Positions 2,740 through 60,200 of a DNA stretch of 64,000 nt are shown here, one piece after another (the stretch's first letter is position 1; each line of letters starts with the position of its first letter). The DNA comes from Cytophagaceae bacterium. GTDB lineage: Bacteria; Bacteroidota; Bacteroidia; Cytophagales; Cytophagaceae. The position numbers and the translations under genes were made by a program. Under the pieces are notes generated by a model. The model saw only the letters and a program-made list of their open reading frames with translations. It was not told the DNA's origin and did not search any database. The DNA is taken from assembly GCA_021151805.1 (NCBI GenBank), contig JAGKWN010000001.1, forward strand, positions 10,746 to 74,745. The letters are read 5' to 3'.

Positions 2740-3003
2740 TTAAACGCGTTTGCGACCTTTTGTCTTAAGCTGTTTCGGATTTTTCTTGTTGATCAATCCG
2801 TTGTCTACATTGAAACGACCGTTTGTATTGGTCTTCTTTTTCTTTTTTGAATCCGTTTTTAATGCTCCGTTTTCATCAAACTGACTTATATCTGCTTCGT
2901 TACTCATCCCCAAACCCGGACAAGGATAAGAAGAATGTTTGTTACACGATGTTGTGCTGAACACAATGAATAAAGCAATCAATGGAATTAAGATGTATCT
3001 CAT
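2740..3003 (-). CDS. small probable lipoprotein, Lys-rich
   Basis: 87 aa. MRYILIPLIALFIVFSTTSC is a signal peptide ending in Cys. The C-terminal half is very basic (KKKKK, KTKGRKRV). It lies 11 nt (2729-2739) upstream of the repeat protein. Confidence 0.5.
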   Translation of the reverse strand: MRYILIPLIALFIVFSTTSCNKHSSYPCPGLGMSNEADISQFDENGALKTDSKKKKKTNTNGRFNVDNGLINKKNPKQLKTKGRKRV

Positions 3004-47754: not shown

Positions 47755-50034
47755 ATGAATAAATATACTCGATACGTTATCATTATCTGGACACTCTTTA
47801 TAGGAGGCTTGTACACGCTTTTCCTATGGACTGTATTGATTCGTTTTAATTACCTGGGTGCATTTGGTGATATGCCTGATCTGGTTAAGCTAGAGAACCC
47901 TAAAAACGAATTGGCTTCAGAAGTGTATTCATCAGATGGAGTATTGTTAGGTAAATATTTCCGCGAAAACCGTAGCCCTGTTTCGTATTCAGAAATTTCT
48001 CCGAATGTAATCAATGCATTGGTTACAACAGAAGACATCCGTTTCAGAGATCATGCAGGAATAGATTTGAAAGGTATGTTTGCCATATTCTATTATATGG
48101 CGAAAGGAGATCAGCGTGGTTCAAGTACGATTACTCAGCAGCTTGCTAAAAACTTATTCAAGACACGTGGTGTGCAGAAGAAAGGGGTATTGGGTTATCT
48201 GCCGGGCTTCAATATTGTTATAGCGAAAGTGAAAGAATGGGAGCTGGCTATTTCATTGGAGAAGATGTATACGAAAAATGAAATCCTTGCTTTGTATTTA
48301 AACACCGTTGATTTCGGAAGTAATTCATTCGGAATTAAAGTTGCGGCAAAAACATTTTTTCAAACCAGCCAGGATAGTTTATCTATTCCACAGGCAGCCA
48401 TGCTCGTGGGTTTGCTGAAAGCGCCAACTTCTTATAGTCCGATTTTAAATCCTGAAAATTGTTTAAACAGAAGAAACACCGTTCTTGAATTATTATTCGA
48501 AAATAAATTCATTACACAAATTCAACTGAATACGTTAAAAAGGCAACCGATTGGATTGAACTACGAAGTGGAAAATCATGCAGACGGATCGGCAACGTAT
48601 TTCAGAACGATGCTAAGTAAGTATTTACAGGAATGGTGTAAAGAGAACAACAAAGATCTTTATGGCGATGGATTGAAGATCTATACAACGATTGATTCGC
48701 GGATGCAGAATCATGCGGAAGCAGCGGTTGCTGAACATATGAAAGTGCTACAACGCAGATTTAATAAGCATTGGGAAGGCGAGAAACCATGGCGCTACCA
48801 GAACAAAACGGAGATCCCGAATTTTATTGAAGATGCTGCTAAAAAAACAGAACGTTATAAAGCATTAGAAGCAAAATACGGCAAAGGGAACGACTCGATC
48901 ATGGTTGAGTTCAAAAAGCCAGTAAAGATGACTGTATTCAGCTGGGATGGAGATATTGATACGTTGATGAGTCCGTATGATTCGATCGCTTATTACAAAC
49001 ATTTTCTGCATACAGGTTTTATGACGATGGATCCGTATAGCGGACATATCAAAACCTGGGTAGGAGGTATCAATTACAAACATTTCCAGTATGATCACGT
49101 GCAGCAGAGTAAGCGTCAGCCAGGATCGTCGTTCAAGCCATTTGTATATGCTACTGCTATTTCTCAGGGAATATCACCGTGTACGCTGGTGCCTGATCTT
49201 CCTATTACATTCGAATATGACGAAGATGGCAAGCATATTATATGGACACCACGCAATGCAGATTGGGTATACTCAGGCGACTCGTTGAATCTTCGCCAGG
49301 GGATGGCGCGTTCGATCAATACAATTGCTGCCCGTGTAACAAAAATGGTGGGTACAGAAAAAGTCATTGAGATGGCTCATAAGTTGGGTATTGAAAGCGA
49401 ACTACGCCCTGTACCGTCTGTGTGTCTGGGATCAAGTGATGTGAATGTGTTTGAAATGGTAGGTGCATACAGTACGTTCCTGAATAAAGGTGTATGGACC
49501 GAACCTATTTTTGTAGAGCGTATTGAAGACAATAGCGGCAATATTATTTATGAGGCTGTACCAAAGCGTAAAGATGCGGTGAGTGAAGAAGTAGCAGCTG
49601 TGATGGTACATATGCTTAAAGGCGGAACAGAAGAGCGTGGTGGTACTTCGCAGGCACTATTTCAGTATGATCTTTTCAGAGGTAATGAAATGGGTGGTAA
49701 AACAGGTACGTCTTCAAATTATTCGGATGGCTGGTTTATGGGCGTATCAACAAGGCTTGTAGGAGGCGTATGGGTAGGTGGCGAAGATAGAAGTATACAT
49801 TTCAGAACTTCTGCAACGGGAGAGGGTTCAAAAACTGCGTTACCTATTTTCGGATTATTTATGGAAAAGGTTTATGCAGATACTACATTGGATATAAAAA
49901 TGGGCAGGTTTAAAATGCCTTCCAAGTTGAGTATTAATATTAATTGTCCGCGTAGGCCAGAGCGTGAAGTGGTAGACAGCCTTGCAATCATGGAAGAAGA
50001 AGACCAGTTGCCGGATGAAGAGATTGTGGAATGA
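47755..50034 (+). CDS. class A penicillin-binding protein (PBP1A-type transglycosylase/transpeptidase)
   Basis: 759 aa. GT51 motifs EDIRFRDHAGID and GSSTITQQ. Transpeptidase motifs SSFKP (SxxK) and KTGTS. Confidence 0.93.
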   Translation: MNKYTRYVIIIWTLFIGGLYTLFLWTVLIRFNYLGAFGDMPDLVKLENPKNELASEVYSSDGVLLGKYFRENRSPVSYSEISPNVINALVTTEDIRFRDHAGIDLKGMFAIFYYMAKGDQRGSSTITQQLAKNLFKTRGVQKKGVLGYLPGFNIVIAKVKEWELAISLEKMYTKNEILALYLNTVDFGSNSFGIKVAAKTFFQTSQDSLSIPQAAMLVGLLKAPTSYSPILNPENCLNRRNTVLELLFENKFITQIQLNTLKRQPIGLNYEVENHADGSATYFRTMLSKYLQEWCKENNKDLYGDGLKIYTTIDSRMQNHAEAAVAEHMKVLQRRFNKHWEGEKPWRYQNKTEIPNFIEDAAKKTERYKALEAKYGKGNDSIMVEFKKPVKMTVFSWDGDIDTLMSPYDSIAYYKHFLHTGFMTMDPYSGHIKTWVGGINYKHFQYDHVQQSKRQPGSSFKPFVYATAISQGISPCTLVPDLPITFEYDEDGKHIIWTPRNADWVYSGDSLNLRQGMARSINTIAARVTKMVGTEKVIEMAHKLGIESELRPVPSVCLGSSDVNVFEMVGAYSTFLNKGVWTEPIFVERIEDNSGNIIYEAVPKRKDAVSEEVAAVMVHMLKGGTEERGGTSQALFQYDLFRGNEMGGKTGTSSNYSDGWFMGVSTRLVGGVWVGGEDRSIHFRTSATGEGSKTALPIFGLFMEKVYADTTLDIKMGRFKMPSKLSININCPRRPEREVVDSLAIMEEEDQLPDEEIVE

Positions 50035-50114: not shown

Positions 50115-51353
50115 ATGAATTTTAAATCAGCTTTGGTAATAATTTTTATGGTATTGCATTTGACTCCGTCAAAAGCACAATCGATAAATAAAACGGTTAT
50201 CCGAAATACAGACTTTGCTTTTGAACTTTTTAAAGAAGCATTTAAAAAAGACACAAGTATTTGCCTTTCTCCTTATAGTATTTCATTTGCTTTATCAATG
50301 GCCTATGGTGGTGCTCGTAATGAAACGAAAACACAAATGAGCCAGGTACTTCACTTTGATGAGAATCTGGATAAATCGAACGAAGCATTCTCAGAAATTC
50401 AAAGGCAATTGAATTTATTTAAAGGTGATACATCCATTCGGCTTGCAATGGCAAATGCAATCTGGAAAAGAGATGAAGAAAAAGTATACCAGAAATATAT
50501 TGATATGCTTAACAAATATTATGGGGCGCCGTTGTATCCAATCACAACTTCTAAAGCTGTAAATGATTGGGTTAAATCAAAAACTAACAATAAAATTGAT
50601 AATGTTATTTCTGACGAAACATTAAAAAAAGCTAATGTAATATTGACCAACGCTATTTATTTTAAAGGTAATTGGCTGCATGAATTTGATGAGAAGAATA
50701 CAAGGAAGGATACATTTTCTGTTAATAGAAATAAAAAAAATATTGTAAACATGATGTATCAAAGAAATAGTTTTAACTATTATCAGGATGAATACAGTCA
50801 GGTTTTGGAAATGCCTTATAAAGGCGATGGGCTTTCAATGGTTATTGTGTTGCCTAAGCCAACATACTCGCTTTCTGAATTGGTAGCAAACATAGATGCG
50901 CAAACATTTGGAAACTATAGATTGGGATTAGCAGAAAACAAGGTTGATGTCTACTTACCAAAATTTAATTTTACTTCTGAGTTTGAATTGTCAAATGAAT
51001 TAAAAGAAATGGGTTTAGTAGATCCATTTACTCCGGTGGCTGACTTTTCCGGAATTGCTCCTAAGGGATTGTATATCTCAAATATTATACACAAAACATT
51101 TATTGAAGTTAATGAAAAAGGGAGCGAAGCTGCAGCTGTTACAGCAGTAGTGATAACTAAAAGCGCACAGCCGCAAGTAATTCAATTTAATGCCAACAGA
51201 CCTTTTTTATTTTTTATTACGGATAAGCAAACAGAGACCATTTTATTTATGGGTAGTGTTGTGAACCCGGTAGAAGTAAATGGTAAAGATGCTAAAGTCT
51301 ATACTGGCCCACGAAGTAATGGAGGCACAGCACCTCCGTCTGTTGGACCTTAA
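50115..51353 (+). CDS. secreted serpin family protease inhibitor
   Basis: 412 aa. Signal peptide MNFKSALVIIFMVLHLTPSKAQS. Inhibitory-type hinge EKGSEAAAVTAVV and serpin signature FNANRPFLFFI. Confidence 0.88.
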   Translation: MNFKSALVIIFMVLHLTPSKAQSINKTVIRNTDFAFELFKEAFKKDTSICLSPYSISFALSMAYGGARNETKTQMSQVLHFDENLDKSNEAFSEIQRQLNLFKGDTSIRLAMANAIWKRDEEKVYQKYIDMLNKYYGAPLYPITTSKAVNDWVKSKTNNKIDNVISDETLKKANVILTNAIYFKGNWLHEFDEKNTRKDTFSVNRNKKNIVNMMYQRNSFNYYQDEYSQVLEMPYKGDGLSMVIVLPKPTYSLSELVANIDAQTFGNYRLGLAENKVDVYLPKFNFTSEFELSNELKEMGLVDPFTPVADFSGIAPKGLYISNIIHKTFIEVNEKGSEAAAVTAVVITKSAQPQVIQFNANRPFLFFITDKQTETILFMGSVVNPVEVNGKDAKVYTGPRSNGGTAPPSVGP

Positions 51354-54947: not shown

Positions 54948-55412
54948 ATGAACAACAACGATATTTTACGCAGGCTCAGATACACATTTGATTTTAATGA
55001 TACTAAAATGATTGCTTTGTTTGCATTGGGCGACAAAGAGGTAACGCGTGCTGAAATAAGTAACTGGCTGAAGCGGGAGGATGATCCGGAGTTTCAGGAA
55101 CTGTATGATAGAGAGCTGGCGGTATTTTTAAATGGCTTCATCGTAGACAAGCGCGGTAAAAAAGATGGACCGGCACCGGCACCGGAAAAAAGCCTGAGCA
55201 ATAATACTATTTTCAGAAAACTTAAAATTGCGTTGAATCTGCAGGATGATGGTATACTGGAAATTCTGGCTTTGGCAGATATGGAGTTCAGTAAGCATGA
55301 GCTTAGCGCTTTATTCAGAAACCCGAGCCAAAGTCAATACAGGCCTTGTAAAGATCAGGTATTGCGTAATTTTATTCATGGCTTGCAGTTGAAATACAGA
55401 GGTGATTCGTAA
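54948..55412 (+). CDS. DUF1456 (YehS-like) protein
   Basis: 154 aa. Two copies of the NDILRRLRY.F / IFRKLKIAL type repeat. Confidence 0.7.
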   Translation: MNNNDILRRLRYTFDFNDTKMIALFALGDKEVTRAEISNWLKREDDPEFQELYDRELAVFLNGFIVDKRGKKDGPAPAPEKSLSNNTIFRKLKIALNLQDDGILEILALADMEFSKHELSALFRNPSQSQYRPCKDQVLRNFIHGLQLKYRGDS

Positions 55413-55481
55413 CGGATATATTTTCATCCCATTTTTTAGTGAAGAGTGTACAAAATGATTAGGCCTGTTAAGTAAATTTTT

Positions 55482-56063
55482 ATGGATAATGCGTCAAAGA
55501 CAATTAAAGAATGGGTAGATGAGTTTTCGTCTGACATGTTCTCATGGGCTTTTTACAAAACTTCCGATAAAGAAACTGCAAAGGATCTGGTGCAGGAAAC
55601 ATTCATAGCCGCTTTTGAGTCATTTAAATCTTTTGAAAATAGAAGTAAGCCCAAAACATGGTTATTTTCTATTCTTAAAAATAAGATTATAGATCATCAT
55701 CGAAAAATGTATAAAAATGCTGTTGTATCTTCTGATAAAATAGTTGAAGAACACAGCACTATTTTATTTTCATATTTGTTTAGCGAAGAAGGAGAATGGA
55801 GAGAAAAAAACAGCGTATCATCTTTGGAAGACAATAGCATTGAATTGCTGGACAATTTTGAATTCAACGAGGTGTTGTCCAAATGTTTTCAAAAGTTACC
55901 AATAACCTGGAATTCCGCCATTCAATTAAAATATATTGAAGATAAAGATGCCAAGGATATTTGTCAGGAATTAGATGTATCAACGTCTAACTATTGGCAA
56001 ATCATTCATAGGGCGAAGTTGCAATTAAGAGCATGTTTAGAGCAAGGCTGGTTTAAAAAATGA
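55482..56063 (+). CDS. ECF-type RNA polymerase sigma-70 family factor
   Basis: 193 aa. Region 2 is AKDLVQETFIAAFESF...WLFSILKNKIIDHHRK. Region 4 HTH is DAKDICQELDVSTSNYWQIIHRAKLQLR. Confidence 0.88.
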   Translation: MDNASKTIKEWVDEFSSDMFSWAFYKTSDKETAKDLVQETFIAAFESFKSFENRSKPKTWLFSILKNKIIDHHRKMYKNAVVSSDKIVEEHSTILFSYLFSEEGEWREKNSVSSLEDNSIELLDNFEFNEVLSKCFQKLPITWNSAIQLKYIEDKDAKDICQELDVSTSNYWQIIHRAKLQLRACLEQGWFKK

Positions 56064-56335
56064 AAAGTTATAATTCGTATTTGATATCATGTCAGAAGGC
56101 TTCTTTTTTGATTGAAAAGAAACTTGGCCATGCATTGAATTCAAAAGAAACGGTGCAACTGTTCATACATAAACTTATTTGCAATGTTTGTCGCAAATAT
56201 GAAAAACAAAGCCGTGCGCTGGACCTTATTTTAAGAAAAAAAATAGCAGAAGATGTTTCTGAGCCAGGTAATTTTTCGTTGGATGCAGAGTCATTGGATA
56301 AATTTAAGTATTTGATTAAAAGTAAATTACAGTAA
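56060..56335 (+). CDS. soluble zinc-binding (ZAS, HxxxCxxC) anti-sigma factor
   Basis: 91 aa. ATGA overlap with the sigma gene. By my count Cys11, His37, Cys41 and Cys44 (HKLICNVC). No hydrophobic segment. Confidence 0.7.
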   Translation: MKSYNSYLISCQKASFLIEKKLGHALNSKETVQLFIHKLICNVCRKYEKQSRALDLILRKKIAEDVSEPGNFSLDAESLDKFKYLIKSKLQ

Positions 56336-56428
56336 ATAAAAAATATTTTTTCTCTTTTTTGTAAGGAATCGCACGAGGCCGCGACTATACCATTGAAGTT
56401 AATCAAAACCCACAAACATTTTAACACA

Positions 56429-56722
56429 ATGGTAAAGAAAACAAAAAGTATTTTATGGTCTGCAGTAGCTGCAGGTGCAATGTTAGGATCTGCAGGCATT
56501 TTTGCGAGCTGCAGTACGGAATCAAAGGAAGTAACTACTGAAATCAAAGCAGACAGCGCCGAACAAAAATGCGGAGCTGAGAAAAAATGTGGTGCAAGCA
56601 AGGACTCAGCAGAAGCTAAGTGTGGTGCAGCGAAAGATTCTGCTGAAGCTAAATGCGGGGCTTCTAAAGCAACTGAAGCTAAATGCGGCGAAGGTAAATG
56701 CGGTGCAGATAAAAAGAAATAA
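56429..56722 (+). CDS. Cys-repeat lipoprotein-type precursor peptide (six KCG repeats), putative MNIO substrate
   Basis: 97 aa from ATG 56429. Signal/lipobox MVKKTKSILWSAVAAGAMLGSAGIFASC. Then QKCGAE, KKCGAS, AKCGAA, AKCGAS, AKCGEG and GKCGAD in a Lys/Ala/Glu/Ser-only context. Confidence 0.7.
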   Translation: MVKKTKSILWSAVAAGAMLGSAGIFASCSTESKEVTTEIKADSAEQKCGAEKKCGASKDSAEAKCGAAKDSAEAKCGASKATEAKCGEGKCGADKKK

Positions 56723-56730
56723 TCTGCTCA

Positions 56731-56760
56731 AAGGCGGAGTAGTTGCTCCGCCTTTTTTAT
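56731..56760 (+). terminator. intrinsic terminator/attenuator between precursor and MNIO gene
   Basis: ggcggag-tagttg-ctccgcc (56733-56752) is followed by tttttt. Confidence 0.75.
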
Positions 56761-56780
56761 TCATCTAATCTTTGGATAGT

Positions 56781-57614
56781 ATGATTGGTATAGGTTTTAG
56801 AAAAGACTTTGCAAAAGACTTTTTAAGTTCATCCATTCTTAAGCCTGATTTTATTGAGGTTGCTCCGGAAAATTGGATTGGCATAGGAGGTTTCTGGAAG
56901 AAGAAACTTTACGAAGCTCTGGAAAAATATCCACTATATACACATGGGCTTTCTTTGTCTATAGGTAGTCCGGATGAACTCGACTTTGAATTATTAAAAG
57001 CTATAAAAAATTTTTTAACCGAGACAGGCGCAGAGATGTACTCAGAACATTTAAGTTATTCGAAATGTGATAACGCTCATTTATACGATCTGTTACCAGT
57101 TCCATTTACAGCTGATGCTGTTATGCATATCTCGAAGCGTATTCAAACCATACAGGATTTTCTTGAACGTAAACTTGCTATTGAAATTGTAAGTTATTAT
57201 TCGCCGGTTGCGGCAGAAATGAGTGAGGTTGAATTTATAAATGCCATTCTGAAAGAAGCAGATTGCGATTTATTGCTTGATGTGAACAATATTTATGTGA
57301 ATGGATTTAATCACTCTTATGATCCTTATGCTTTTATTAGTCAGCTTCCTTTAGAAAGGGCGGCTTATATACATATGGCGGGCCATGATCAGGTTTCAGA
57401 AACATTGATTATTGATACGCATGGTGAAGCTATTATTGATCCGGTATATGATCTGTTTGAATATACAATGAATCGGGTTAATCGTGATGTTCCAGTATTA
57501 CTGGAACGCGATTTTAACATTCCTCAACTCCCCGAATTGCAAACAGAACTTGAACGGTTAAAAGCAATAAAAACAGAAACCCTGAAAAAAGAATTTTATG
57601 GCATACACCGATAG
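56781..57614 (+). CDS. DUF692 family protein (MNIO, MbnB/BufB-like multinuclear non-haem iron oxidase)
   Basis: About 277 aa from ATG 56781 (MIGIGFRKDF); the track start at 56772 is TTG. Blocks HGLSLSIGS, YSEHLSY, LLDVNNIYVN, IHMAGHD, IDTHGE and LLERD resemble the DUF692 TIM barrel. Confidence 0.8.
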   Translation: MIGIGFRKDFAKDFLSSSILKPDFIEVAPENWIGIGGFWKKKLYEALEKYPLYTHGLSLSIGSPDELDFELLKAIKNFLTETGAEMYSEHLSYSKCDNAHLYDLLPVPFTADAVMHISKRIQTIQDFLERKLAIEIVSYYSPVAAEMSEVEFINAILKEADCDLLLDVNNIYVNGFNHSYDPYAFISQLPLERAAYIHMAGHDQVSETLIIDTHGEAIIDPVYDLFEYTMNRVNRDVPVLLERDFNIPQLPELQTELERLKAIKTETLKKEFYGIHR

Positions 57615-58356
57615 TACACAACCGTATCAGCGTATGCTGGCAAATTATACGCGCACGGGTATTGAAGAAAGAATACCCGGAACGAAGCAGGAGGGAATTC
57701 AACGCTACAGAACAATGATATATAATGTAGTGAATGATTCTTTAATCACTGCATATCCATTGACAAAAGGACTCTTGACTGAAGAAGAATGGAATGATAG
57801 TGTTCAGCATTTTTTTTCATCACATGCATGTCAATCGCCTTTTTTATGGCGAATGCCATTTGAATTCCTTGAGTTTGTAAAGATGAATGAGCTAACGCTC
57901 CAAAATAAATATCCGTTTTTAAATGATTTGCTTTTATACGAATGGGTAGAAATAGAAGTGTTCATGATGGAAGATATTGATGTTACTTATACATCAAAAG
58001 GGAAAATAGAAAATGGTTTATTAATGTTAAATCCTGCATGTGTGGTTCAATACTTTCAATATCCTGTATATGATAAGCAAATACAGGGTATTTCGAAAAA
58101 AGATAAAGGGCATTATTTTTTGCTTACACACAGAAATCCTTTAACAGGGCGTGTTTCATTTCTTGAAATTGCGCCTATGTTTGCACGAATGTTCGAATTT
58201 CTTTCAGATGAAGCATATACGATCGATCAGTTAATTGATCAATTTTTAAATGAAACTTCAATAACAATCGATCTCAACAAAAAAATCGAAATAATGGATT
58301 TTTTTAAAGCATGTATTGATAAACAAATTATTCTTGGATATAAAATAACAAATTAA
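57598..58356 (+). CDS. DUF2063-like partner protein (MbnC/BufC-like)
   Basis: 252 aa, with a 17-nt overlap with the DUF692 gene. The N-terminal pattern YRTMIYNVVNDSLITAYPLTKGLL..EEW...QHFF.....QSPF.W.MPFEFLEFV matches my recollection of DUF2063. Confidence 0.6.
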   Translation: MAYTDSTQPYQRMLANYTRTGIEERIPGTKQEGIQRYRTMIYNVVNDSLITAYPLTKGLLTEEEWNDSVQHFFSSHACQSPFLWRMPFEFLEFVKMNELTLQNKYPFLNDLLLYEWVEIEVFMMEDIDVTYTSKGKIENGLLMLNPACVVQYFQYPVYDKQIQGISKKDKGHYFLLTHRNPLTGRVSFLEIAPMFARMFEFLSDEAYTIDQLIDQFLNETSITIDLNKKIEIMDFFKACIDKQIILGYKITN

Positions 58357-58367
58357 AATACACAACT

Positions 58368-58799
58368 ATGTTAACACAAAAATACGAAATGTATAAAAAA
58401 GCATTGAACAAACTTCAGGACATATCTTTATTGTTCATGCGTTTGGTCCTTGCTTATGGTTTTTATAATCCAGCATTAATGAAAGTTAAAAACATTGATG
58501 GAATTATTTCCTGGTTTGAAAGCATGGGCATGCCAATGCCTGCGTTAAATGCATATTTGGCAACGACAACTGAAGTATTGGGCGTAATATTACTCACAAT
58601 AGGTTTAGGTGTAAGGATCATTACTATCCCATTGATGATTACCATGGTTGTTGCCATCGGAACCGTTCATTGGTCTCATGGGTTTGAAGCAGGAAATAAT
58701 GGTTTTGAAATTCCTTTGTATTACATGCTTATGCTTTTTATACTGCTAACGCATGGCGCAGGGAAATATAGCCTGGATTATTTATTACGCAAAAAATAG
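58368..58799 (+). CDS. DoxX family membrane protein
   Basis: 143 aa with 4 TM segments. LFMRLVLAYGF start, typical of DoxX. Confidence 0.8.
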   Translation: MLTQKYEMYKKALNKLQDISLLFMRLVLAYGFYNPALMKVKNIDGIISWFESMGMPMPALNAYLATTTEVLGVILLTIGLGVRIITIPLMITMVVAIGTVHWSHGFEAGNNGFEIPLYYMLMLFILLTHGAGKYSLDYLLRKK

Positions 58800-58868
58800 T
58801 ACCTATAGTTTATTTTCAGAAAACACCAGTATATTTTATGATGCTGGTGTTTTATTTTCTGTCAACGT

Positions 58869-60200
58869 TTATATTGTTGAAGTTGTATTCGGTATTTCAA
58901 TCAGAAATTGTGTGAAGGAATTTACTCTTGATTTTACAGTTATTGTTCCGTTTAGTTTCTCAACCATTTCTTTAACGATATACAAGCCTAGCCCGGAGCC
59001 TGTGCTTTGATTGCTTGCCCTGTAAAACATATCAAAAACATGCTCGATATATTCAGTCGGAATTCCGATGCCATTATCTTTGATCAGAATGATTGTTGAT
59101 TTTTTTGTGCTGGAAATATCAATATCCATGCTGGGTTGTTCTGCTTCTTTGCGGTAGTATTTGAAGGAGTTTGAAATCAAATTATTCAGAATGGTTTTAA
59201 TTCTGTATGGATCGGAATACAAGTAGAATGGTGTATTGATCCGGATTGTTTTTTTCATTGCACCAGCCTGTTCAAAGAAACTAAGTTCTTCAAAAATATC
59301 ATTCAGTATAGATTCAAATTGTATCGGTTGTGTGATTAAATCTGTTTTTAAATTTCTGGAAAGCTGAATGATCTGCTGAATATGCAAGTCTAATTTGTTG
59401 ATGCAATTTTCCTGCATGCGTACCAGTTCTTGAATAGAATCTGGATCTTTTTCATTTTTGATCAGCGTTACAAGTCCCATGAGCGAAGTTAATGGAGCCC
59501 GCATGTCATGCGAGGTACGATATACGAAGCTGTCTAATTCTTCATTTAGTTTTTTCAGGGAATTATTTTTTGAGAGTAGTTTATTGTTCAGGCCGGTGAG
59601 TTTTAAATTTATAAATTGATTAACCCGGAGAATTACATAGAAAAATAAAATACAGAAAAGTATTGTTGTGATATAGTTGAATTCATATTCATACAAGTTT
59701 GTTGTTGTATCATTACCCAACAATTTGTAATCCGTTGTTTCTAAAATAACAATCAGTGTGCTTGTAATCGCAAGTGAAAGTAAAATGTATTTATAATCTT
59801 CAATACTATAAAAGGCAAACGTTGCAAAGATGATAATCAGCATGGCAAGGTTCATTCCTGATTCGCGACCCAGCGATGCTGCTTTGACGAACATGAATAC
59901 ACTTCCGATTACCATCATAATCAACTTGGCCTGATTGTAATTTCCTTTTTTGATCAGGAATAAAACAAAAGGTATGACCGTAGAAAAGAATAATAAATAA
60001 TTCAGGATGATCAGAAAGGAGAGTTTGAAAAATATTCCGATCACTAAATAGATAGAACCAAATAGCACTGCTACCAGACACATAGCCACAAGTAATTCAA
60101 TACGTATGATTTCGTCATACGGAACTTGTCTGGCGGATAAACTTCTCAGGTCAATGAATTTGCGTATTATCCGGCCGCGGATAAAATCCAATATTTGCAT
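58869..60200 (-). CDS. membrane sensor histidine kinase
   Basis: 443 aa. About 6 N-terminal TM segments, H-box SHDMRAPLTSL, and the G-boxes DNGIGI and GSGLGLYIVK. Confidence 0.88.
   Translation of the reverse strand: MQILDFIRGRIIRKFIDLRSLSARQVPYDEIIRIELLVAMCLVAVLFGSIYLVIGIFFKLSFLIILNYLLFFSTVIPFVLFLIKKGNYNQAKLIMMVIGSVFMFVKAASLGRESGMNLAMLIIIFATFAFYSIEDYKYILLSLAITSTLIVILETTDYKLLGNDTTTNLYEYEFNYITTILFCILFFYVILRVNQFINLKLTGLNNKLLSKNNSLKKLNEELDSFVYRTSHDMRAPLTSLMGLVTLIKNEKDPDSIQELVRMQENCINKLDLHIQQIIQLSRNLKTDLITQPIQFESILNDIFEELSFFEQAGAMKKTIRINTPFYLYSDPYRIKTILNNLISNSFKYYRKEAEQPSMDIDISSTKKSTIILIKDNGIGIPTEYIEHVFDMFYRASNQSTGSGLGLYIVKEMVEKLNGTITVKSRVNSFTQFLIEIPNTTSTI

Follow-up and report, generated by a model that had tools for sequence, protein, structure and literature searches.

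The DNA analysed here is a 64,000-nucleotide stretch from a Cytophagaceae bacterium (assembly GCA_021151805.1, contig JAGKWN010000001.1, positions 10,746 to 74,745; hereafter the window). Its subject is a short open reading frame (ORF) at 56429-56722 on the forward strand, which had been described from its sequence as a lipobox-bearing, possibly membrane-tethered, ribosomally made, post-translationally modified peptide (RiPP) with six KCG repeats. The ORF is most probably the HvfA-type precursor of a lipidated oxazolin (a 'DAG-RiPP' of the Buf_EGKCG/oxazolin family) in a Cytophaga species, and is followed by the gene for an MNIO (DUF692) peptide maturase. The parts of the precursor are as follows.

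56429-56722, forward strand: hvfA-type precursor gene, 97 amino acids plus stop, matching NF050137, with a ratio of nonsynonymous to synonymous substitution rates (dN/dS) of ~0.05
56429-56509, forward strand: lipoprotein-type signal peptide, residues 1-27, with n-region MVKKTKS and h-region ILWSAVAAGAMLGSAGIFAS
56501-56512, forward strand: lipobox F-A-S-C, with Cys28 (56510-56512) as the predicted diacylglyceryl-modified +1 residue
56513-56566, forward strand: conserved segment after the lipobox, STESKEVTTEIKADSAEQ, with T30, E31, K33, V35, T37, E38, D42 and E45 invariant; it is a candidate for a sorting signal and/or for the part recognised by HvfC
56567-56704, forward strand: core with six KCG units (K codons beginning at 56567, 56585, 56618, 56651, 56681 and 56696), where Cys-to-5-thiooxazole conversion and binding of Cu(I) are predicted

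The precursor as a gene

Translation of the ORF gives MVKKTKSILWSAVAAGAMLGSAGIFASC followed by STESKEV...KCGADKKK, 97 amino acids in all, and reproduces exactly the basic n-region, hydrophobic core and FASC site of the original prediction. The six KCG units, at residues 47, 53, 64, 75, 85 and 90, lie in the contexts first noted and are arranged as four single xAKCG units plus one pair. Within the 69-residue tail after Cys28, which is rich in Lys, Ala, Glu, Ser and Gly, aromatic residues are lacking and V35 and I39 are the only aliphatic ones, again as described. The KCG pattern is not due to chance, since none of 200,000 shuffles that kept the composition of the mature peptide reached six units (the maximum was three), and six of the nine KCG tripeptides in the six-frame translations of the 64 kb window fall inside this ORF.

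Comparison with two equal-length Cytophaga orthologues, one from C. aurantiaca and one from a Cytophaga metagenome-assembled genome (MAG), gave dN/dS values of 0.046-0.067 at dS of 0.9-1.5. The differences at codon positions 1, 2 and 3 numbered 11, 5 and 42 against the former and 6, 2 and 33 against the latter. In the DNA the repeats are degenerate: Tandem Repeats Finder (TRF) reports a 33-nt unit present twice at 81% identity and a 15-nt unit in about four copies at 65-83%, while the KCG units draw on TGC and TGT for Cys and on GGA, GGT, GGG and GGC for Gly. The ORF is thus a genuine gene, purifying selection on it is strong and its repeats are old, which bears out the earlier argument from synonymous codons for selection on the peptide rather than recent slippage. 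A protein identical to the precursor is present in NCBI, and its 90% cluster includes a Cytophaga sp. MAG protein with the NCBI name 'HvfA family...'.

Family assignment

Only an NCBIfam domain model detects the precursor, namely NF050137 'KCGExKCG_twice' (HvfA family), which it passes with 37.1 bits against a cutoff of 19.5; a Pfam scan of the precursor returned no hits, and so no DUF2282. The precursor is a member of the HvfA family and not an equivalog of H. influenzae HvfA. This membership in the HvfA/oxazolin family had not been recognised in the original prediction.

In nontypeable Haemophilus influenzae (NTHi), HvfB/HvfC carry out a four-electron oxidation of each of six Cys in the three AEGKCGEGKCG cassettes of HvfA, and the product binds Cu(I) (PMC11252979). 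The resulting heterocycles were first assigned as oxazolone/thioamide and were later reassigned by the same laboratory as 5-thiooxazoles (10.64898/2026.06.05.730506, 10.64898/2026.07.17.739211). HvfA is cleaved by signal peptidase I (SPI), retains two unmodified N-terminal Cys in a disulfide, and acts as a virulence/invasion factor in NTHi (PMC11252979). MmrA/bulbicupramide, a related EGKCG peptide, is copper-induced (PMC12538549). The chemistry assigned to the core of the Cytophaga precursor comes from the work on HvfA, NedA and MmrA (PMC11252979, 10.64898/2026.06.05.730506, PMC13056109).

The hvfXABC system of NTHi is one of the closest known. Both precursors (that of NTHi has ~95 residues) begin with a Sec signal and hold six Cys within KCG motifs, and both are adjoined by genes for an HvfB-type MNIO, a DUF2063 partner and a DoxX protein; the HvfA-family, HvfB and HvfX models were all passed in the Cytophaga cluster. 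However, HvfA is cut by SPI and is soluble or secreted, whereas a signal peptidase II (SPII) lipobox is found here. Likewise, the three paired cassettes and N-terminal disulfide of HvfA contrast with four single units, one pair and no second free Cys, and the Cytophaga cluster, unlike hvfXABC, contains genes for an extracytoplasmic function (ECF) sigma factor and an anti-sigma factor.

Two other identities were tried and do not fit. A bufferin (Buf1 DUF2282/BufB) is at odds with the lack of a Pfam hit in the precursor and with the MNIO score of 260.4 against the BufB cutoff of 310. A methanobactin (MbnA/MbnB) is at odds with the MbnB score of 46.5 against a cutoff of 325 and with the Sec signal of the precursor.

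Signal peptide and lipobox

The N-terminal Sec-type signal peptide that oxazolins have in place of a classical leader is present in the precursor in an SPII rather than an SPI form. Its n-region has a charge of +3, and its h-region comprises 20 uncharged residues with a mean hydropathy of 1.59. A PROSITE PS51257-type rule was applied, which combines a [LIVMFWSTAG]2-[LIVMFYSTAGCQ]-[AGS]-C box with six preceding uncharged positions, a Cys lying between residues 15 and 35, and K or R somewhere among the first seven. The precursor satisfies it with MLGSAGIFASC, the Cys being at position 28, and the rule fires on only two of the 115 window ORFs of at least 60 amino acids. The second of these, at 2740-3003 on the reverse strand, encodes 87 amino acids (MRYILIPLIALFIVFSTTSC followed by NKHSSYPCPG) and has no Pfam hit.

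Among 14 close homologues drawn from 5.8 billion proteins, the signal peptide is nearly unchanged, and Cys28 is kept in all 14 within an [ILM]-F-[AS]-S-C box. FASC has the F/L-x-S-C form of the lipobox that is common in Bacteroidota. The UniProt name of the Cytophaga hutchinsonii orthologue is 'Lipoprotein'. SPI cleavage of the precursor is unlikely, because Phe would occupy position -3 and an AxA-like site is absent. Two checks proposed earlier, for an SPII signal and for conservation of the Cys at the FASC site, thus come out in favour of the original prediction, the first by the rule and the second in the homologues. Together, the SPII signal, the lipobox and the conserved +1 Cys on a RiPP precursor, which mark a DAG-RiPP, are supported by the rule, by the 14 homologues and by a published list described below. 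The modifying enzyme is cytoplasmic: HvfB aligns to its profile from residue 2 and to the structure 3bww from residue 3, leaving no room for a signal peptide, so modification would precede export.

The gene cluster and its regulatory elements

The precursor stands directly upstream of an HvfB-type MNIO gene, which is followed by genes for a DUF2063 partner and a DoxX protein; a sigma factor and an anti-sigma factor are encoded ahead of it.

55482-56063, forward strand: ECF-type sigma-70 factor, first gene of the cluster (TIGR02937 sigma70-ECF, 92 bits, cutoff 42.9; Pfam Sigma70_r2 and r4_2)
56060-56335, forward strand: small cytoplasmic anti-sigma factor of 91 amino acids with the zinc-binding anti-sigma (ZAS)-type motif C11...H37-x3-C41-x2-C44, overlapping the sigma gene by 4 nt
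56360-56387, forward strand: candidate promoter of ECF type, TGTAAGGAA-N14-CGACTA, lying 42 nt ahead of the ATG of the precursor
56730-56765, forward strand: intrinsic-terminator-like hairpin plus T-run between precursor and hvfB, with an 11-bp stem and a 4-nt loop (hairpin 56730-56755)
56781-57614, forward strand: hvfB, MNIO (DUF692) peptide maturase (NF003818 HvfB, 381.4 bits, cutoff 360; Pfam MbnB_TglH_ChrH, 320 bits)
57598-58356, forward strand: hvfC-like partner with DUF2063/HvfC_N and NGO1945_C/HvfC_C (Pfam 56.4 and 38.7 bits, each exceeding its cutoff), overlapping hvfB by 17 nt
58368-58799, forward strand: hvfX, DoxX-family membrane protein (NF050144 HvfX, 134.4 bits, cutoff 80; Pfam DoxX)
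58820-58853, forward strand: terminator-like hairpin at the operon end, after the DoxX gene

The order sigma, anti-sigma, A, B, C, DoxX is common to C. hutchinsonii and metagenomic relatives, and the ECF sigma gene occupies the equal position in C. hutchinsonii and the metagenome loci. The closest solved structure to HvfB is 3bww (244 bits), and the hvfC-like protein shows a weak match to 3dee.

The anti-sigma factor scores 36.6 bits with the NF052368 subfamily model, under its cutoff of 50, and its translation contains no hydrophobic segment. Its Cys11, His37, Cys41 and Cys44 match the zinc ligands of the redox-sensing anti-sigma factor RsrA, and many Bacteroidota and Ignavibacteriota loci retain the HxxxCxxC motif in the corresponding ORF. 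Since a membrane segment is lacking and this motif is so widely kept, the sequences suggest that a cytoplasmic thiol/metal switch may control these clusters, unlike the membrane protein NrsF of Caulobacter bufferin operons.

Upstream of the precursor, both boxes of the element TGT[AC]AGGA-N14-CGAC[TA]A are conserved in five Cytophaga-clade loci, with a variable spacer. The element at 56360-56387 is retained as a candidate ECF promoter of hvfA because the two boxes are invariant in these five loci. A similar motif was not visible upstream of the sigma gene, so autoregulation of the sigma factor is not supported. A sigma-70 promoter scan of 55300-59000 gave 13 sites against 15.5 expected, none of them upstream of hvfA on the forward strand, with a model that omits Bacteroidota promoters. 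The hairpin at 56730-56755 has a predicted energy of -18.1 kcal/mol (z = -4.5), none of 200 shuffles folding equally well, and its stem GGCGGAG/CTCCGCC is kept in Cytophaga loci. It is probably a partial terminator giving an excess of precursor transcript, and as a pair the hairpins would fit attenuated read-through, with more precursor than enzyme.

Distribution and origin of the lipobox

When the HvfB protein was scanned against one genome per species, 80 loci with 62-85% identity were obtained from Cytophaga, Chitinophaga, Pedobacter, Flavobacteriales, Bacteroidales, Prolixibacteraceae and Ignavibacteriota. In 75 of the 80, a KCG-repeat ORF stands immediately 5' of the MNIO gene, so the association with DUF692 genes that had been expected elsewhere in Bacteroidota is found; in loci L007-L084, the precursor ORFs lie ~60-110 nt upstream of the MNIO match. 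The lipobox is present in two of these 75 precursors, both from Cytophaga genomes, and in none of the 73 from other Bacteroidota and Ignavibacteriota. In the latter, the SPI sites are of ANA/ASA type and precede a conserved LFxYxxLGSGxEVRxxLL segment, of which L, G, R and L are invariant in a 15-sequence sample of loci L007-L084. A further 26 more distant precursor hits also lack the lipobox (0/26) and show AxA sites with an NPF..L..GY segment.

The LFxYxxLGSGxEVRxxLL segment is probably the HvfC recognition element, and the Cytophaga precursors are without its first half. When the Cytophaga and SPI-type profiles were aligned with hhalign, the two proved homologous in the core as well as in the signal peptide (probability 98.9%, E 2.7e-17), and an eight-column gap fell exactly at 'lf.y.nLGS', with 'sKeV.TE' opposite 'G.evR..L'. 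From the restriction to Cytophaga among the loci and the gap at the leader-like segment, the lipobox is a derived, genus-level trait restricted to Cytophaga, and the lipobox form appears to have arisen through loss of part of that segment. The SPI-type relatives from Chitinophaga, Pedobacter, Flavobacteriales and Ignavibacteriales share the order anti-sigma, precursor, MNIO, and their MNIO proteins are 62-74% identical; they differ from Cytophaga in having the ANA/ASA sites and the complete segment, where Cytophaga has a lipobox and has lost the first half.

A more specific proposal can be offered tentatively, as one that is rather less likely to hold than to fail. Cytophaga would have turned a soluble, SPI-exported oxazolin into a lipid-anchored one by losing LFxYxxLGS, and the invariant STExKxVxTE would serve both as the remaining HvfC recognition element and as a lineage-specific sorting signal to the outer membrane, the surface or vesicles. 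If true, this would be a natural switch of RiPP localisation with the chemistry unchanged, and would offer a test of whether HvfC needs the N-terminal segment.

Several side observations concern individual loci. The precursors of Chitinophaga spp. L053, L076, L079 and L084 carry KCS, KCA, KCT or KCV in place of KCG (e.g., 'HEGKCSPGKCAAGKCAGHKK'), so Gly after the presumed target Cys is not universal. In L016, a Flavobacteriales MAG, no KCG precursor turned up between the genes for the anti-sigma factor and the MNIO in a search limited to ORFs that begin with ATG. The locus L078, labelled 'uncultured Akkermansia sp.' (Verrucomicrobiota), has a typical Bacteroidota-type precursor and anti-sigma factor, and its label is probably a binning error.

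Comparison with lipidated and soluble MNIO products

The original prediction took the known MNIO substrates to be released, soluble peptides, a view that is out of date. Some 16% of the Buf2 bufferins have been predicted to be lipoproteins, with anchoring to a membrane as a possibility (PMC12452194, 2025). MNIO-modified RiPP-lipoprotein hybrids were defined as DAG-RiPPs in a 2025 preprint (PMC12636315) and in PNAS 2026 (PMC13056109), work in which the Dyadobacter peptide DybA was found to be triacylated and SignalP 6 mining of MNIO neighbourhoods showed that part of the chryseobasins, bufferins and oxazolins have SPII signals. Furthermore, NedA of Neisseria dentiae, with an SPII signal and three EGKCG motifs, was expressed with NedBC in E. 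coli and recovered from the membrane fraction as a triacylated product (16:1, 16:0, 16:0) with a mass shift of -12 Da (PMC13056109). Since -12 Da corresponds to the three motifs, the lipobox Cys of NedA is spared by the MNIO and left for lipidation. An S-diacylglyceryl, N-acyl Cys at the mature N-terminus has been demonstrated for DybA and NedA only (PMC13056109).

The Cytophaga cluster resembles lipo-NedABC in combining an SPII lipobox with EGKCG-type repeats (-4 Da per motif in NedA) and in having the MNIO and partner genes next door. It differs in belonging to Bacteroidota rather than Pseudomonadota and in having six motifs instead of three. The supplementary table of MNIO-associated predicted lipoproteins in PMC12636315 lists, in cluster 'IV Oxazolins', the entry MEKKS(K)ILWSSVAAGAMLGAAS(I)FASCSTESKDVTT...KCGEGKCGADKKK, which is the C. 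hutchinsonii orthologue of the precursor with small machine-reading slips. Other lipoproteins of that cluster have signals ending in ...LALAGC followed by Q or ...LSAC followed by K, to which the Cytophaga signal peptide is unrelated. Because the Neisseria-type and Cytophaga-type signal peptides are unrelated, the lipid anchor was gained independently, more than once, and the two types illustrate such gains in different lineages.

The C. hutchinsonii orthologue (WP_011586444.1 / ABG60335.1, UniProt A0A6N4SV35), named 'HvfA family oxazolone/thioamide-modified RiPP metallophore' by NCBI, is 69% identical and has the same lipobox context and gene order. It differs at the species level only: two of its units read HTCG instead of KCG, and it is one residue longer. 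In the literature search, no paper's main text connected C. hutchinsonii with DUF692, MNIO or oxazolin.

The bufferins Buf1 (DUF2282) and Buf2 are likewise Sec-exported, encoded with MNIO, DUF2063 and DoxX proteins, and yield copper chelators with Cys-derived thiooxazoles (PMC11626156, PMC12452194). They are often under ECF sigma control, as the ECF sigma gene of the present cluster recalls. However, their precursors belong to a different fold and family, with no DUF2282 hit here, and the Cytophaga MNIO lies above the HvfB cutoff and below that of BufB.

As for the membrane-tethered RiPP that had been put forward as a distinct format, the MNIO-adjacent, multi-Cys precursor with a lipoprotein signal stands, but the format has already been published. 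Its orthologue in another Cytophaga species is already catalogued as a predicted lipidated oxazolin, and lipidation and modification of the class have been shown experimentally in another phylum. What is new is small: the restriction to Cytophaga, the apparent origin from a loss within the leader-like segment, the unusual layout of four single KCG units plus one pair, and the ZAS-type regulator. With this locus, the recently defined class of lipidated, MNIO-modified copper-binding peptides gains an example from Bacteroidota, and its import beyond annotation is small. C. hutchinsonii is genetically tractable. Being culturable, it could be a native host in which to address the membrane and face occupied by DAG-RiPPs, copper tolerance and the HvfC segment.

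Proposed pathway and location of the product

The ECF sigma factor (55482-56063) would be held by the cytoplasmic zinc/thiol-type anti-sigma factor (56060-56335) and freed under copper or thiol stress, the Cys/His-zinc site sensing thiol-reactive or thiophilic-metal stress. Freed sigma factor would transcribe hvfA from the conserved ECF-type promoter, and the hairpin 3' of hvfA would pass part of the transcripts into hvfB-hvfC-hvfX, leaving the precursor in excess. By homology with HvfA, NedA and MmrA, the cytoplasmic HvfB (MNIO)/HvfC complex would convert the Cys of the six KCG units into Cu(I)-binding 5-thiooxazoles, with a loss of 4 Da each. As predicted from the lipobox, the modified peptide would then be exported by Sec, receive diacylglycerol on Cys28 from Lgt, be cut by SPII between Ser27 and Cys28, and be acylated at its N-terminus, steps for which NedA is the experimental analogue. 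The product would be a ~70-residue, highly charged and probably unstructured peptide on an envelope membrane, where, as its relatives suggest, it may sequester Cu(I).

Under the E. coli rule, the Ser at +2 of the precursor would direct the lipoprotein to the outer membrane. Described surface-export signals of Bacteroidota are K-(D/E)2, Q-A-(D/E)2, SDDDD and SDDFE (PMC5080379). None of these is matched by residues +2 to +7 of the precursor, S-T-E-S-K-E, where a single acidic residue falls between +3 and +5, although the product may still be exposed on the surface.

Weighing of the evidence and alternative explanations

Several points count against a lipidated HvfA-type oxazolin under stress control. 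The lipobox was called by a regular-expression rule, and FASC differs from the classical E. coli box L-[AS]-[GA]-C. The precursor does not pass the full-length HvfA equivalog NF050188 (23.4 against 95 bits), four of its six units are single xAKCG rather than paired EGKCGEGKCG as in HvfA, and the partner scores 124.5 bits with the HvfC model NF050145, under the cutoff of 142. In Table S2 of PMC12452194, the row for C. hutchinsonii (GCF_000014145.1) gives Buf_EGKCG = 0, with MNIO, DUF2063 and DoxX listed. The bare promoter pattern AGGA-N14-18-CGACWA has one match in the window (56364-56387) against 0.77 expected and is not significant, and the trigger of the cluster is read from the ZAS motif only. 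Finally, lipidation, thiooxazole formation and copper binding are all assigned by homology.

Part of this reflects divergence. As Table S2 gives 0 despite the listed neighbour genes, the Buf_EGKCG profile missed the C. hutchinsonii precursor, and the counts of oxazolin-family clusters for Bacteroidota in PMC12452194 are probably underestimates. With the HvfA equivalog and HvfC cutoffs missed, and the published Buf_EGKCG hidden Markov model without the C. hutchinsonii precursor, the Cytophaga precursor is a divergent branch of the HvfA/oxazolin (Buf_EGKCG) family.

Among the alternatives, the peptide could be lipidated and yet serve copper acquisition, or act as a metallophore or interaction factor displayed on the surface or on outer membrane vesicles (OMVs), rather than detoxify copper at the envelope. 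Many Bacteroidota lipoproteins are flipped to the cell surface (PMC5080379), OMV release of DAG-RiPPs has been raised (PMC13056109), HvfA has its role in NTHi virulence and invasion, and the invariant STExKxVxTE right after the Cys could be a sorting signal. However, STESKE matches no described export signal, and the cluster lacks TonB-dependent receptor and SusCD genes. Moreover, an ECF/anti-sigma stress-type regulator fits protection, as in the sigma-F/bufferin and GIG operons, and related EGKCG peptides are copper-induced and protective. A role in acquisition or display is therefore considered unlikely.

Still less probable is an ordinary soluble periplasmic or secreted oxazolin, cut by SPI or inefficiently by SPII, with Cys28 as a metal ligand or redox partner instead of a lipid anchor. 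The company the precursor keeps speaks for it, as all 73 related Bacteroidota/Ignavibacteriota precursors and the 26 distant hits are of SPI type, and H. influenzae HvfA is cut by SPI with its N-terminal Cys pair unmodified in a disulfide (PMC11252979). Yet for a cut ahead of Cys28, positions -3 and -1 hold F and S, and the established -3,-1 rule for SPI disfavours Phe at -3; the clear ANA/ASA sites of the relatives have no AxA-like counterpart in the precursor. The homologues keep the entire [ILM]F[AS]SC box, beyond the Cys alone (14/14), a single non-KCG Cys leaves no intramolecular disulfide partner, and lipoboxes of this kind are used, as NedA demonstrates.

The notion that the ORF is no real gene, or that its repeats are recent, functionless DNA slippage, might draw on the low complexity, the absent Pfam hit and the 33-nt and 15-nt TRF repeats, but has next to no chance of being right and is refuted by the curated NCBIfam model that the precursor passes, by its place beside the MNIO gene conserved across two phyla, and by purifying selection (dN/dS ~0.05 at dS of at least 0.9), to which are added repeat copies only 65-83% identical in DNA and differing in synonymous codons.

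Other genes in the window

Elsewhere in the window, a full-length serpin with an N-terminal signal-like segment is encoded at 50115-51353 on the forward strand (Pfam PF00079, 362 bits). Bacterial serpins are uncommon. The serpin gene adjoins a class A penicillin-binding-protein-like ORF at 47755-50034, which was identified by eye only.

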